Notes under the pieces: generated by a model
The model's input: the letters and a program-made list of their open reading frames with translations, nothing else
What the model was told of the DNA's origin: nothing
Database searches by the model: none
Source of the DNA: an uncultured Mucispirillum sp.
Lineage (GTDB): Bacteria; Chrysiogenota; Deferribacteres; Deferribacterales; Mucispirillaceae
Direction: 5' to 3'
Assembly (NCBI GenBank): GCA_944324465.1
Contig: CALUWI010000001.1
Span: 33,023 to 97,022 of the forward strand
DNA length: 64,000 nucleotides
Shown here: positions 3,044 through 51,882 of the stretch, in pieces
Position numbering within the stretch: position 1 is the first letter of the stretch
Layout of the letters: each line of letters starts with the position of its first letter
Position numbers and translations under genes: made by a program

Positions 3044-3185
3044 ATATTCCTTACCATTAAAGTAATTTTTAATTCATATGAGATTTATTATATACTTTCC
3101 TGAATTTTTTTCTACTATTTTTTTGTTGATTACATAAACAATAAATATTATATTGTTTTATTATAGACACAAGGTATATTATTGT

Positions 3186-3728
3186 ATGATATCAGGTTTA
3201 AATTTCTTAGCAGTATTAGATGATAATTTCTTTAAAGATAAAATATTTGAAACAGCAGAAATGCTTGACGGCACTGCTGAAATTATATGGTTTAGATTTA
3301 AAGATTATACTAACATTCAAAATAAACTTATCAATATCAGAAAGACAGTAAAAAAAAGTATTCTTACATTAAGCAGTGATTATATGCTGGCAGAAAAGTA
3401 TGGCTTTGACGGTGTACATCTTAATAAAAATACTATTAATTATTATTATAATATTAAAAAAGATACAAAACTTATGGTAGGTTATTCAAGCCACTCTGCA
3501 GATGAAATTAATAAAATTAATGCTGATTATTATACATTAAGTCCTATTTTTTATACTCCAAAAGATTATGAAGTTACTCCATTAGGTATAATAGATTATA
3601 ATAAATCAAAAAAAGTATTTGCTCTCGGCGGTATTAATCTTGAAAATTTAGATAAAATAAAAGACCATTTCTACGGCTTTGCAGGTATAAGAATAATTAA
3701 TGATATAATAAAACATTATAATTTATAA
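3186..3728 (+). CDS. Thiamine-phosphate synthase / TenI family protein
   Basis: GFDGVHL, VGYSSHS, DYYTLSPIFYT, VFALGGI motifs; ATG at 3186 preferred over the ORF-track TTG at 3153. Confidence 0.8.
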   Translation: MISGLNFLAVLDDNFFKDKIFETAEMLDGTAEIIWFRFKDYTNIQNKLINIRKTVKKSILTLSSDYMLAEKYGFDGVHLNKNTINYYYNIKKDTKLMVGYSSHSADEINKINADYYTLSPIFYTPKDYEVTPLGIIDYNKSKKVFALGGINLENLDKIKDHFYGFAGIRIINDIIKHYNL

Positions 3729-3784
3729 AACATAAATCAACTATTGCTTATTCCAAAGGTGTATTATATTTGAAACAGCTTTAA

Positions 3785-5815
3785 CTATTTACTAATTTTA
3801 ATCATATAAGATTTGAATATATCTTCATTCATAAAATCATCATCTATTTTACCATTTTCACATTTCCATATTTGCCAGTTATCTCCATTTTGAATTGGCA
3901 GATAAAAAATATAACCCGTCATCTTGCTGGCATAAACATATGCTTTTTTTATTTTTTCTATCTTTTCCTTATAAAATTCATCATCTAAATCATAAGATGA
4001 ACTTTTATTTACACTTTTTACTTCAAATATATGCACTTTATCTTTTTTATCTTTAAAAATAAAATCTGGATAGCTTGTATGTTTTCTAGTATGGTAATAA
4101 TCATATTTAATGTTTGATTTATCTATAAAATTCTTACCAAATAAATATACTCTTTCCGCCTCTATTTCAATAAACTTACAACATTTTTTTCTTAATCCAT
4201 TTAATATCTTGAAAAATGATTTTTCTGCATCGCTGTCAAAACTATATTCTTCATCATCTGTATACCATATCCAATCATCTACTGTTACAGTATGTCCATT
4301 ATCGTAAAAATAACTATCATAATCTTGTCTAAAATTATATTCCTCTTTTATCATGCCATATTTTTCATAATCTTCTACTGTTGTCATTATTTTTTCTTTT
4401 ATTTTATTTAGATTAAGCATAAATTCAAACCATTTATTGTAATCTGTAACATATTCATAATATTTATCTTTTACTTTATCATTAATTTTATTAAGTTCTT
4501 TATACATATTAAAAATTGATTTATTAGAATATGCTGTTTTATCTGCAACTATACAATCCAATATATCTATATTACTTAAAGGGACTTCTTCTAGTTCAAT
4601 AATTTTGAAGGGTCTAAATTCTTTTACTATTTCATTACCTGCAATAAAATTTATCCCTCGTAATTTTGTTATTACTTTTTTCTTAATATTTTCCTGCGGT
4701 TTAATACCATAAACATAGGCTTTGCTAAAAATATTTTGTTCAATTGGGTTTAATTTTTCAAAATAAGTAAGACATGGATTTCTTCTAACTCTGCCTATTA
4801 CCTGTTCATCTAACTGTTTTGATTTAGAATCTCTTACTTGGTAAAGCATACATGCTCTTGGCATATCAAAACCTTCTGTTATTACCATTTTAAATATGAC
4901 TACATCTATAAAAGAATTATTTTCTTTTACATAATTATACCATTGATTTTTATTTTTCATTTTTTGTAGATTACTGTTAGTCTTATAACCGCTTGTCTTA
5001 TCTATATCAGAAAAATATACCCAGTTTAAACTTTTACTCTCAACAATTTTTGTTATTATATTAATCTCTTCTTCTGCCTTATTCTTATTTGATATTTGTA
5101 TTATAAATGCTGGATTTATTCCGCTATTATGATAAATTTCTCTTATTTCCTTGAATTTATTTAAAGCATTATTCAAATCTTCTTTTAATTCAGTATCAAA
5201 ATTTATATATTCAACATCTTTTATTAAATTAACACTTACTGCCTCATCTTCTGTGATTACAACATCATATTCATCATTTACAGGTGTAGCAGAAAAATTA
5301 ATAGTTTGATAAAAATAATCTGATATTTTTTTAAGGTTATTTGTAGCAATATGACATTCATCTCTTACTAAAATTATTTTCTTTTTCTTTTTTAAACAAT
5401 TATCTAAAAAATTTTGTAAAACTCTTTCTTTATATACCCTGCTGTTTTCTGTATACTGGCTTGTTGGAAGAACAAATATATTACATGTATCATCAATATA
5501 TAAGCTGTATTCTGTATTTTTAGTATTTTCATTACCACTGCTGATATAATAAGGTCTTAATTTTGTATATTTATTTAATGCTAAATCATCAAATTTATTA
5601 TAACTTTGTCTGGCAAGTTTTCCTTTTGATAAGATAGATACTACAAAAATAATATTTTCATCATCTGCTATCATCTTATTCATAAGATTAGCCATTATAT
5701 GAGTTTTACCACTTCCAGTAGGTGCTTTTACAGTAATTGATTTATTACCTTTTTTTGCAAGATTAAAAATAGATCTAACTGTCCTTTCCTGCAATTCTAT
5801 TATTTCACTTTTCAT
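3785..5815 (-). CDS. res: Type III restriction enzyme Res subunit (SF2 helicase + PD-(D/E)xK nuclease)
   Basis: APTGSGKT Walker A, RDECH, FSATP, ITEGFD, QVIGRVRR, C-terminal YPDFIFKD...IFEVKS; overlaps the mod stop. Confidence 0.88.
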   Translation of the reverse strand: MKSEIIELQERTVRSIFNLAKKGNKSITVKAPTGSGKTHIMANLMNKMIADDENIIFVVSILSKGKLARQSYNKFDDLALNKYTKLRPYYISSGNENTKNTEYSLYIDDTCNIFVLPTSQYTENSRVYKERVLQNFLDNCLKKKKKIILVRDECHIATNNLKKISDYFYQTINFSATPVNDEYDVVITEDEAVSVNLIKDVEYINFDTELKEDLNNALNKFKEIREIYHNSGINPAFIIQISNKNKAEEEINIITKIVESKSLNWVYFSDIDKTSGYKTNSNLQKMKNKNQWYNYVKENNSFIDVVIFKMVITEGFDMPRACMLYQVRDSKSKQLDEQVIGRVRRNPCLTYFEKLNPIEQNIFSKAYVYGIKPQENIKKKVITKLRGINFIAGNEIVKEFRPFKIIELEEVPLSNIDILDCIVADKTAYSNKSIFNMYKELNKINDKVKDKYYEYVTDYNKWFEFMLNLNKIKEKIMTTVEDYEKYGMIKEEYNFRQDYDSYFYDNGHTVTVDDWIWYTDDEEYSFDSDAEKSFFKILNGLRKKCCKFIEIEAERVYLFGKNFIDKSNIKYDYYHTRKHTSYPDFIFKDKKDKVHIFEVKSVNKSSSYDLDDEFYKEKIEKIKKAYVYASKMTGYIFYLPIQNGDNWQIWKCENGKIDDDFMNEDIFKSYMIKISK

Positions 5816-7443
5816 TATCAGCTACCCAGCCATTTCTTTTTTTATATTCTTCATCGCTCTCTACTTTCCTGCAGGTTATTTCAAACTCACTGCATATCCA
5901 GTCTATTTTATCATGGATATTGCCTTTAAAATCTTTATTATATAATTTTTCATCTATTTCATTAAATATATGTTGGCTGTCTGTTGATTTTTGTTTTATT
6001 TCAGTTACTTCTAAACCATCTCCATAAGGTTTATTTTTTTCTAACCATTTAAAATTATCTGTGCCGTCATAACAAGAGCCAGTCATTACTCTTTTTAATC
6101 TTTTAGAAGTAACATCATAAGCTATACCATTTGGGTTAATTTCTGTTTTTTCATTATTTGTAACTAAAATAAACTGCCTTTTACCACCATCTTCTCTATT
6201 TAGCTCCATTACTGCATGCCCTGTGGTGCCACTTCCTGCAAAAAAATCTAGGATAATATCTTGTTCGCTAGTATCTATACTTGGGGAAGTAGAAATTTTT
6301 AGTAAATGTTTAATAAGTTCAATAGGTTTAGGTGTGTCAAAAACTTTTTGATTATTAAATATAGATAAAATTTCTTTTGTAGAATCTGTGGATGTTCCGT
6401 ATTCTGTAAAAAGTGTTCGTGTTTTTATTATTTTTTCTTTTCCTTTCATTTCATCAAAATATATTACTTCATAAGGTGTTAATCTGCTTTTAGAATCTTC
6501 TTGCCAAAATATATGTTCATCATCTAATGTTTGAGGTTTTTTTCTCCAACAACCATCTGCCCCATTTGGTGCTACAGGAAAAAAGTCATTTCCATTTGGA
6601 TCTTTTATAGGATAATAAAGTGTAGGTCTATCGGTTCTCAAAGAGTGATTTCCCCATTTTTCAAGCTTTAAAATTTTTGCTTTTTTACCGTTTATAATTC
6701 TATTAAAATCGTTTTCACGATACTCTTCCGTAATATCGTTTATATCCCAATCTAATTTTTGATAGCATAATATATACTCGTGTTCTTTTGCAAAGTATTC
6801 TGAATCTTGACTGCCACCTTTTTTCTTTTGCCATATCAAACTAGCCACAAAATTCCTTTCCCCAAACACTTCATCAAATAAGCATTTTACATATGCCTGA
6901 TTTCTGTCATCTATACTGCAAAATATTACTCCGTCATCTCTTAACAATTGTTTTGCAAGCATAAGTCGTGGATAAAGCATAGATAAAAGGTTATCTCTTG
7001 TTATAGCATTATCATAATTAGTTTTTGCAAATTCGCCTAAGTGGTCCTTTCCATAAGGTGGGTCAATGTAGATTACTTTGATTTTTCTTTTATAGGATAT
7101 TAATAAATTTAATAGAGCTGGATAGTTATCACCAATAATCAGCTTATGAGTTTCCCCCCCCCCTATCAGCACAATTAAAACTTAAATCACTATTATATTT
7201 TAAATAATTTATAGTTTTACCGTCATTTTTTTCAAGCCTGACATCAAAATGAAAACCTGTCCTTTTATATGTTGTGCCTAATATTGATAGTTTTAAAACA
7301 TCATCTTTTGTATCAGCATTATTAATTAATTTAATTAAAAATTCTGCATTTTCTGTTTCAAGAATACCATCGTTTTTTCGTTTTTCTATTTCGTTTATTA
7401 TTTCTTCTTTAAACTCATTCAATGTTAAATCGTTATTATTCAT
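5805..7443 (-). pseudogene. mod: Type III Mod adenine methyltransferase split by a frameshift at a G10 tract (phase-variable, OFF state as assembled)
   Basis: ORFs 7144..7443 (ends DRGGGNS*) and 5805..7172 (GGGETHKLIIGDN, IYIDPPY, DFFAGSGTT) join in frame if the tract is G9 or G12; G9 gives 545 aa. Confidence 0.9.
7154..7163 (-). repeat. G10 homopolymer (C10 on + strand) inside mod
   Basis: tttCCCCCCCCCCtatcagc at 7151-7170. Confidence 0.95.
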
Positions 7444-7471
7444 ATTTCCACCTAATTTTGTATTATATACA

Positions 7472-8092
7472 CTAATTTTTAAGCCTTAAAATACTTAATC
7501 CCAGAGTTATAAATATTATCCCTGCGATTTTATTTAAATAATATGAAAATTTAGACTGCCTTAATGTGTTTGATATTCTAGCTGATGCCCACACTAAAAA
7601 CAAGCTCCATAATGAGCCTATGAAAATAAATGTAAAACCTAATATTAAAAAAGGAACTGGACTTTCAGCATTGCTTTTTACAAACTGGGGAAGAAGTGCT
7701 AAAAAGAAAAGTGCCACTTTTGGATTAAGAAGGTTTGTAAAAAGACCCTGCCTGAATACTAAAAAAAATGATGATGATGCATTTTCTTTATTAATATTGA
7801 TACTTGATTTTGATTTTAAAGCCATAATACCAAGATATATTAAATATGCTGCACCTGCAATTTTTACAATATTAAATAAAAGTGCAGATGTCATTAATAT
7901 TACAGAAAGACCAAAAGCCGCTAAAGTTGTATGCACAAATAAGCCGCACACAATACCTGCAACTGATGCAATACCCTGCCTGTATCCACCTGCTATTGAT
8001 TTTGTTAATATAAAAACAGTATCTGCTCCCGGTGTTAGTGAAAGCATAATTACCGCTAATATAAAGCCATAGTAATTTGTAATATCTGCCAT
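7472..8092 (-). CDS. LysE/RhtB family amino acid exporter
   Basis: SLTPGADT, GAAYLIYLG, GLFTNLLNPKVALFF motifs. Confidence 0.92.
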   Translation of the reverse strand: MADITNYYGFILAVIMLSLTPGADTVFILTKSIAGGYRQGIASVAGIVCGLFVHTTLAAFGLSVILMTSALLFNIVKIAGAAYLIYLGIMALKSKSSININKENASSSFFLVFRQGLFTNLLNPKVALFFLALLPQFVKSNAESPVPFLILGFTFIFIGSLWSLFLVWASARISNTLRQSKFSYYLNKIAGIIFITLGLSILRLKN

Positions 8093-8109
8093 GTTACTGC
8101 TCCAATCAA

Positions 8110-9309
8110 TTATTGAACTAAAGAGTTCATAGAGAAAAGCGGCTGCATAATAGATACAACAATAAAACCTACAAGCACACCAATAATAACAATAAATATG
8201 GGCTCAATAGCTGAAATAAATGATGTTAAAAACTTATCAACATTTTTAGAGTAAAATTCATTAACACGCTCTAAAAGTTCAGGCATATTGCCGGAAGATT
8301 CACCAGTTGAAACAGCTGCAGGAAAAAGCTCTGGGAAAATACCTGCATTTCTAACTGCAACAGAAAATTTTGTACCAGCCTGTACCGCTTCCCTTACTTG
8401 AGATACTATATCAAACATATATTTATTATCAATAACAAGAGAAGCATAATGCAGAGCATCTGTTAATGGCAGCCCTTCTTTTAACTGAAATGATAATACA
8501 TGGGCAAATTTAGATACAGATACATGTGATACAAGATTTATTTTAAACAGCTTTTTATCCACTGCAAGTCTGAATTTGTTATTATTTTTATAAAGGTATC
8601 TTAAAGTAAATATAATAAACATTATAAAAAGCAGCAGAACAAGACCATATTCGCTTACAAAATCAGAAACTTTTAATAAAAACTGAGTAGATGCTGGTAT
8701 CTGCTGTTTCATTGATGCAAAAATAGATTCCATTTTAGGCACAACAAAGGCAAGTAAAAACCCAAGTACTGCAAATCCCATAACAAGTATTGTCATAGGA
8801 TAAACCATAGCTGTTTTTATTTTATCTGTATTTTTTCGCTTATCTTCTTCATATACTGCAATATCTGCTAAAACGGCAGCCAGCTTGCCCACCTGTTCTG
8901 ATGCTTTTATAAGGTTTACATACATTGGTTCAAAGATTTTCGGATATTTTGAAAGACTGTCTGAAAACCGCATACCTTCAGAAACTTTTGATGCAGATTC
9001 TAATAAAGTATTTTTTAAATGCTGTTCTTTTGTACTTTTGGCAACAATTTTTAATGCTTCTACAAGTGGTATACCGCTTCTTAAAAGCAGAGAAAGCTGA
9101 AAAAATGTGTCTGATAAATTAAGTTTTTTAGCAAATGCTTCCTGCAGTTTTGCAAAAAACGGCTGTTTTTCCCTCATATCAGAAATAGAAGAAACAAATA
9201 TCCCTTCTGATAAAAGTTCACTTGTTAGTGCCTGTCTGCTTACTGCTTCACGGACACCTTTTACTTCTTTTCCTGTTTTAGATATACCTTTATAGCTGTA
9301 TGCTGCCAT
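8110..9309 (-). CDS. gspF: Type II secretion inner membrane platform protein F
   Basis: LLRSGIPLVEAL, ASEQVGKL, YP, GESSGNM, IEPIFIV motifs; follows gspE. Confidence 0.92.
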   Translation of the reverse strand: MAAYSYKGISKTGKEVKGVREAVSRQALTSELLSEGIFVSSISDMREKQPFFAKLQEAFAKKLNLSDTFFQLSLLLRSGIPLVEALKIVAKSTKEQHLKNTLLESASKVSEGMRFSDSLSKYPKIFEPMYVNLIKASEQVGKLAAVLADIAVYEEDKRKNTDKIKTAMVYPMTILVMGFAVLGFLLAFVVPKMESIFASMKQQIPASTQFLLKVSDFVSEYGLVLLLFIMFIIFTLRYLYKNNNKFRLAVDKKLFKINLVSHVSVSKFAHVLSFQLKEGLPLTDALHYASLVIDNKYMFDIVSQVREAVQAGTKFSVAVRNAGIFPELFPAAVSTGESSGNMPELLERVNEFYSKNVDKFLTSFISAIEPIFIVIIGVLVGFIVVSIMQPLFSMNSLVQ

Positions 9310-51855: not shown

Positions 51856-51882
51856 TTGACAAATCCCCCCCCCATGTATAAT
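51856..51882 (+). promoter_or_regulatory. Consensus sigma70 promoter with C9 tract in a 15-bp spacer (candidate phase-variable promoter)
   Basis: TTGACA 51856-61, aatCCCCCCCCCatg, TATAAT 51877-82; AAGGAG RBS at 51901. Confidence 0.85.

Follow-up and report, generated by a model that had tools for sequence, protein, structure and literature searches.

A probable phase-variable type III restriction-modification system, caught in its OFF state, in a gut Mucispirillum

Simple repeats are present in 17.4% (662/3805) of the type III mod genes covered by a REBASE survey (Atack et al., 2018; PMC5909438). Poly-G-switched mods are already well known, and include Helicobacter pylori modH (ModH5 phasevarion; PMC5700931, PMC4209511) and Campylobacter upsaliensis modU, which the same survey describes together with other mods carrying a mononucleotide G tract, G[n]. 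The modA, modB and modD phasevarions of Haemophilus influenzae and Neisseria also depend on a repeat-driven frameshift in mod and have the same logic of a stochastic methylome, but their repeats are tetra- or pentanucleotides and their res genes are often inactive. Here, a locus with a homopolymer and an intact res is described, which lies in a 64,000-nt stretch (the window, meaning the whole stretch of DNA that was analyzed) of a Mucispirillum genome of 2.42 Mb with 31.7% GC in 31 contigs. As in modH, a beta-class N6-adenine Mod of type III has poly-G inside its open reading frame (ORF), target recognition domain (TRD) alleles occur in a conserved backbone, and the host is a spiral bacterium of the gut mucus. 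Mucispirillum is a widespread gut-mucus commensal or pathobiont and is used in mouse colitis models; no paper linking it with phase variation was found in the open-access literature. We consider it highly probable that this mod-res pair is a genuine phase-variable restriction-modification (R-M) system of type III, carried on a horizontally acquired 3.76-kb cassette and caught in the OFF state.

The mod-res pair and its G10 tract

The mod gene is broken by a run of ten G residues, the minus strand reading GCTGATA-G10-AAACTCATAAG at this point. Its ATG lies at 7443 and is followed by 93 codons and then by GAT-A-G10-AAACTCATAAG. The parts of the pair, in window positions, are as follows.

5805..7443, minus strand: type III mod, whole extent; frameshifted here (OFF), G9 would yield 545 aa
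7154..7163, minus strand: G10 homopolymer, the putative switch; nucleotides 281-290 of the gene, codons 94-97, encoding a Gly-Gly(-Gly) linker
7144..7443, minus strand: OFF-state N-terminal fragment of 99 aa (PF27727/UCP028340 domain), ending at a TAA 8 nt past the tract
5805..7172, minus strand: downstream mod frame of 455 aa with all methyltransferase motifs, starting at GTG 7172 and open with G10 only
7444..7471, minus strand: mod 5′ leader within the cassette, in which AGGTGG, 5 nt ahead of the ATG, is the ribosome-binding site; a TATAAT-like box is also present
5805..5815, minus strand: 11-nt overlap between the mod 3′ end (stop at 5805-5807) and the res ATG (at 5815)
3785..5815, minus strand: type III res, 676 aa, uninterrupted; Pfam ResIII 4e-18, PADLOC REase_III 1e-26

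An earlier, sequence-only reading of this DNA had claimed that mod is split by the G10 run at 7154-7163, that G9 or G12 would restore one ORF (of 545 aa for G9) carrying DPPY and FAGSG motifs, and that res is intact. The split is borne out by the direct reading and the ORF listing, and the restoration by simulated tract lengths: G9 gives a single ORF of 545 aa and G12 one of 546 aa, G8 and G11 leave a stump of 100-101 aa, and G10 leaves the 99-aa N-terminal ORF plus the 455-aa frame from the GTG. A natural ON form of 545 aa (P0002) is about 98-99% identical to the window mod, and public gene calls place PF27727 on a stump of 98-101 aa. The window as a whole has 5 runs of at least eight G, against 0.10 expected from its shuffles. 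The Gly-Gly encoded by the tract is invariant in an alignment of homologues. In an AlphaFold2 model of Mod, residues 95-98 form a loop with a pLDDT (predicted local distance difference test) score below 50, which comes after the helical domain at the N-terminus and before the first strand of the methyltransferase core; an extra Gly, as in going from G9 to G12, should therefore be tolerated. A scan of the locus for promoters and terminators gave nothing above shuffles, so that the mod promoter is a putative one, and its -35 element, or read-through from the neighboring lysE, would lie outside the cassette.

The Mod assignment is supported at several levels. In the read-through protein, in which the break is written as X, the DPPY motif is found at 128-131 and FAGSG at 402-406, that is, motif IV precedes the TRD and motif I as in the beta class. 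Mod matches Pfam N6_N4_Mtase (7e-38) and PADLOC MTase_III (5e-79), its top 11 matches being type III models without exception, and its relatives in the PDB are 7dsu, or Mbo45V (1e-57, residues 8-489), 6k0w (1e-42) and EcoP15I Mod, 4zcf_A (7e-31). A scan of NCBIfam gave sub-threshold matches only for Mod and none for Res. No characterized homologue with the same TRD was found, and the recognition sequence is not inferable. The res ORF, uninterrupted over 676 aa and matching ResIII, agrees with the earlier claim of an intact gene. Among 14 Res homologues from neighboring loci, the Walker A motif GSGKT, D152-E153-x-H155, SATP and QxxGRxxR are invariant, and so is a predicted C-terminal PD-ExK nuclease motif, P583-D584...E598-V599-K600. 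Sequence and profile searches with Res against the PDB matched no type III Res. The AlphaFold2 model of Res (pLDDT 80) has the fold of a superfamily 2 (SF2) helicase, and Foldseek returned generic SF2 helicases, EcoP15I Res (4zcf_C, 7e-8) appearing only at rank 22. The Res assignment thus rests on Pfam, PADLOC and the motifs. The two genes are adjacent and co-directional, and the order mod-res is kept in all homologous loci. Judged by homology, motifs and gene order, the pair forms a type III R-M system that is compact yet complete.

Strand slippage at the poly-G in codons 94-97 would shift the reading frame of mod. With G9 or G12, full-length Mod of 545 or 546 aa would be made, the tract then supplying a flexible Gly-Gly(-Gly) linker that would join the N-terminal domain to the methyltransferase core; with G8, G10 or G11, translation would stop after about 100 aa. 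Type III Res needs Mod to recognize DNA, as established for EcoP1I and EcoP15I. Since Res cannot recognize DNA without Mod, the OFF state most likely silences methylation and restriction together, and this joint loss would keep the switch non-lethal, as a safe double null. The start of res overlaps the end of mod and is not preceded by a good ribosome-binding site, which suggests translational coupling and, by this coupling, a further lowering of Res in the OFF state. The outcome would be populations of mixed ON and OFF cells, which would differ in their methylome and in how well they resist phage or foreign DNA, and perhaps also in gene expression.

Tract length and selection across samples

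All tract lengths below are the assembly consensus for a sample and come from Illumina metagenomes. An independent contig of the source run in Logan, at 64.5x, likewise reads G10 and is free of differences along 16 kb. In another sample of the same study (run X3) the tract is G8, and it is the only difference in a contig of 3,925 nt. Run X5 has G10. Run X9 has G9 and is thus ON, the tract being the only indel in 15 kb that holds 88 substitutions. For near-identical contigs of 85 kb, the per-sample consensus call is ON in three cases and OFF in one, and the run series SRR277481xx holds all three lengths (G8, G9 and G10). Copies with 97-99.8% identity over 3.1-3.7 kb contain no frame-changing indel other than that at the tract.

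A census was made on the DNA of 25 contigs from public gut metagenome assemblies, the adjoining A run being counted with the G tract.

G9A3: ON, 10 contigs
G10A3: OFF, 5 contigs
G8A3: OFF, 2 contigs
G8A4: ON, 2 contigs
G8A2: OFF, 3 contigs
G9TA4: OFF, 3 contigs

The flanks of 16 contigs with G8A3, G9A3 or G10A3, all from different samples, were compared with those of one of them (L074) over 500 nt before and 1,300 nt after the tract. Fifteen had 0 mismatches and one (L089) had 1; the length was G9 in 10 of them (L074 counted), G10 in 5 and G8 in the one compared (L085). G8, G9 and G10 thus occur on the same allele, so the tract, whose comparison among related strains the sequence-only reading had proposed, is not invariant. 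At the protein level, ON and OFF forms coexist in clusters at 90% identity, with ON forms on about 26 contigs and OFF forms on about 39, in the following length classes.

545 aa: ON, about 26 contigs
455 aa: OFF, about 20 contigs
454 aa: OFF, about 6 contigs
391 aa: OFF, about 13 contigs

These ON and OFF length classes, together with G8, G9 and G10 on an identical allele, back the earlier proposal of a repeat-switched type III mod caught in the OFF state.

Selection acts on both sides of the tract. The ratio of nonsynonymous to synonymous substitution rates (dN/dS) between the window and a homologous locus (L042) is 0.14 for the 93 codons that precede the tract, 0.14 for the part of mod that follows it and 0.137 for res. 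The similar values of about 0.14 on either side indicate that full-length Mod is the selected product, and the purifying selection on an intact res indicates that defense is still a selected function. The N-terminal domain (PF27727, 95 residues) has many invariant residues in 30 homologues.

The cassette and the genome-wide poly-G repertoire

The pair sits between two convergent 3′ ends.

3714..7471, no strand assigned: mod-res cassette, 3,758 bp, between the convergent 3′ ends of the TMP-TENI gene and lysE
3153-3728, plus strand: TMP-TENI gene, flank of the cassette
7472-8092, minus strand: lysE, flank of the cassette

A strain that lacks the 3,758-bp mod-res cassette co-occurs in run X3, where a contig joins 3713 to 7472 with one T between them at a depth of 11.4. 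In 1-kb windows, GC is 0.23-0.31 in the cassette, with a minimum of 0.23-0.25 over res, and 0.33-0.37 in the flanking genes. Inspection of the cassette ends revealed neither a target-site duplication nor an integrase. The same-genus genomes and the mates in the 90%-identity protein clusters are labelled Mucispirillum, and the window DNA is present in chicken-gut metagenomes. In a mouse-gut Mucispirillum metagenome-assembled genome (MAG), mod occupies the same site, and the flank there is 93% identical. A search of RNA runs for the locus gave none; shares of its DNA were 0.10 or less and came from mouse-gut relatives. As a separate observation, the X5 strain differs from the window at 7768-8119, where small deletions of 1-10 nt (19 gaps in total) are clustered around the junction of lysE and a T2SS-F gene; its tract is still G10.

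The nearest relatives of mod outside Mucispirillum are in Helicobacter and Campylobacter assemblies and have poly-G at the same codon. A homologue in a Helicobacter-labelled MAG is 90% identical over residues 8-194, has G10 and is OFF, its flanks being unrelated to this genome, and one in a Campylobacter MAG is 49% identical, has G13 and is ON at 599 aa, with a res of 672 aa. An 87% homologue beside the conjugation genes TraF/TraH has G9 at the same nucleotide (281) and is ON. In homologues from C. jejuni (69%), Gly-Gly is encoded as GGTGGA with no tract. The presence of the tract in some relatives and its absence in C. jejuni indicate that the switch travels with one branch of the mod family. 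Campylobacterota are the most likely donors of the cassette; Loy et al. (2017; PMC5285517) identified this group as the chief proteobacterial origin of the genes that M. schaedleri gained by horizontal transfer. The conjugative element of the contig in ENA ERZ17808816 is a plausible vehicle for moving cassette and tract between gut bacteria. On this contig (L047:1-9596), the 87%-identical mod-res lies beside TraF/TraH and also beside a gene with a phage pRha domain. The case shows that a switch tract can move between phyla along with its gene.

Runs of G or C of 9-11 nt are strongly enriched in the whole genome, G000, of which the window is C1:33023-97022, with 33 seen against about 0.26 expected (G, 19 against about 0.13; C, 14 against about 0.13). 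Their length spectrum is bimodal.

Run length 5: observed 395, expected 343
Run length 6: observed 7, expected 54
Run length 7: observed 0, expected 8.6
Run length 8: observed 2, expected 1.4
Run length 9: observed 24, expected 0.22
Run length 10: observed 8, expected 0.035
Run length 11: observed 1, expected 0.006

This bimodality indicates that runs of 9 or more are maintained whereas runs of 6-7 are purged. G runs of at least 9 were present in 12/12 same-genus genomes searched, with tens in each of nearly all of them. Given such a repertoire, switching of mod by slippage is the natural reading. Loci with intragenic tracts elsewhere in the genome include these.

G000 C19:38089-39954: second type III mod (L092), 621 aa, G9 at codon 222, ON, beside a canonical res of 1,025 aa
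G000 C14:43692-44879: type I hsdS (L093), 395 aa, G9 between its two TRDs, ON, in an hsdM-rhuM-hsdS-hsdR locus
G000 C9:111667-125330: glycan-synthesis locus, eight poly-G/C tracts in 14 kb, mixed ON/OFF, with GT2, MBOAT, RgpF-like and GT9 heptosyltransferase-like genes
G000 C1:20420, C1:110032, C10:84818, C15:45755, C23:4927 and C25:7746: six paralogous molybdopterin oxidoreductases with poly-G, PF00384+PF01568, 1,000-1,190 aa

All type I and type III R-M systems of the genome, with two type III mods and one hsdS, therefore have poly-G in a methylation or specificity gene, and an EptA-like gene with a sulfatase domain also has an intragenic tract. The 90% cluster of the GT2 gene holds M. schaedleri records of 281 aa and 141 aa, the short form stopping near the tract codon. 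In five of the six molybdoenzymes, the tract encodes GGG shortly after the twin-arginine translocation (Tat) signal (SRRSFLKG) and the lipobox Cys. Two of the six genes are ON and four OFF in this genome, and their public cluster mates fall into full-length and N-shortened classes; in the one OFF copy checked, the ON/OFF difference consists of an indel of 1 nt at the boundary of the tract and not of a pure change in G count. These oxidoreductases are candidates for phase variation in respiratory enzymes, something that would be unusual. A recurring unit, cat-G8/9-aatgtcaag, was also noted at 51865-51873 of the window and at G000 C16:9007, C16:38250 and C20:32282; with poly-G/C in a promoter spacer next to TTGACA, such units look like promoter-type switches.

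The genome encodes MutS1 (859 aa, with a MutS_I domain) and MutL (631 aa), at G000 C16:39507-41837 and C4:42006-42260. Its repertoire resembles a Campylobacter-type phasome, but in a member of Deferribacterota proficient in mismatch repair, unlike Campylobacter and Helicobacter. The chances are about even that Mucispirillum has an unreported, genus-wide poly-G contingency system despite MutS1/MutL, partly imported from Campylobacterota with the tract in place, which would cover the type I/III methylation or specificity genes, the surface-glycan cluster and the six Tat-lipoprotein molybdoenzymes, with mod as one node. If so, this bacterium would be stochastic in its methylome, in its surface and even in its set of respiratory enzymes. 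No description of a Mucispirillum poly-G repertoire was found in the open-access or searchable literature.

Alternative explanations and known systems

Several points weigh against a genuine phase-variable system. Some contigs have low coverage (3-10x), at which homopolymer length may be miscalled, and the tract data are one consensus per sample rather than mixtures within a sample or reversal in a single clone. G8A2, G8A4 and G9TA4 differ in the adjoining A run, which is not simple G slippage. G8-G10 lie at the short end of highly mutable tracts, and MutS1 together with MutL should lower the presumed slippage rate compared with Campylobacter or Helicobacter. In addition, OFF forms are somewhat commoner than ON forms and some strains have lost the cassette, as would be expected if a chance frameshift in a G run had hit an R-M system on its way out. 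Such a decaying pseudogene is nonetheless very improbable, since a dN/dS of about 0.14 in both halves of mod and in res counts it out, the tract is the sole frame-breaking difference among those closely related copies, ON forms are common, the position of the tract is conserved across genera, and the genome keeps runs of 9 or more while purging those of 6-7. That the OFF call is an artefact of assembly or sequencing, the true tract being G9 and the gene intact, was an error already considered in the sequence-only reading; errors are frequent in homopolymers of about 10, and the window was taken from an assembled metagenome. However, the source sample reads G10 in two independent assemblies, at 64.5x, five other samples also show G10 and still others G8, with the background identical, and split ORFs are reported by gene callers in several archives, which leaves this explanation scarcely credible.

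The earlier reading had also suggested that an N-truncated Mod might be made from the GTG at 7172. In that case, a protein of 455 aa would still methylate in the G10 state, and OFF would be a second state of activity. Only with G10 does the frame from this GTG stay open across the tract, and all methyltransferase motifs lie inside it; the upstream ORF stops 26 nt downstream of the GTG, so termination and reinitiation would be conceivable. The suggestion is not supported and is improbable: the 20 nt that precede this GTG contain no Shine-Dalgarno-like purine run, in contrast to the AGGTGG at the true start, no such start exists for G8 or G11, the remaining OFF states, and the missing 95-residue domain is conserved in 30 homologues and under purifying selection (dN/dS 0.14). 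The most serious alternative is that of a phasevarion proper, for which the locus has been labelled a candidate, where the selected function would be epigenetic regulation through methylation of promoter sites and restriction would be secondary. Type III phase-variable Mods control regulons in every case studied so far, including the poly-G-switched ModH5 of H. pylori (PMC5700931) and the REBASE survey (PMC5909438); moreover, all three type I/III methylation or specificity genes here have poly-G, and both ON and OFF are common in nature. On the other hand, Res is intact in every copy seen, with all helicase and nuclease motifs kept and a dN/dS of 0.137, and the cassette is dispensable, being absent in the co-occurring strain, which fits an accessory defense island better than a core regulator. 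We therefore regard a primarily regulatory function as possible but doubtful, and it is compatible with a phase-variable R-M system, the two not being exclusive.

If this phase-variable R-M system does flip between ON and OFF, strains would differ unpredictably in methylome, in transformability and genetic tractability, in phage sensitivity and possibly in gene expression, which would matter for gnotobiotic experiments and for the dynamics of phages and their hosts in the gut. The ON/OFF states of contingency genes can be read directly from public metagenome assemblies.

The prototypes EcoP15I (4ZCF) and Mbo45V Mod (7DSU) share with the present system motif IV before motif I, an SF2 Res with a C-terminal PD-ExK domain and the order mod-res. 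They are not phase-variable, however, and the Res here is short (676 aa), has no match by sequence to any chain in the PDB, and matches 4zcf_C only at the level of the fold. C. jejuni is not known to have mismatch repair of the MutS1/MutL type, unlike the Mucispirillum genome described here, which encodes both proteins. Its poly-G phasome (PMC4965091) includes genome-wide G8-G11 tracts with a bimodal spectrum and an R-M gene, Cj0031 (PMC4889913), as in Mucispirillum, but Cj0031 is a single-polypeptide type IIG enzyme. Compared with H. pylori modH, the host here belongs to Deferribacterota, the similarity to 6k0w, the structure of an H. pylori Mod, is only moderate (over the core, E 1e-42), and the cassette, with its intact res, varies between strains. 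Neither Mucispirillum nor Deferribacteres is mentioned in the main text of the REBASE survey (PMC5909438), and, by comparison with the G[n] mods described there, switching here is supported by many metagenome assemblies and not by the presence of a repeat alone. Although poly-G-switched mods are familiar, new here are the phylum of the host, the ON/OFF census taken directly from public metagenomes and the connection with a wider repertoire of poly-G tracts.

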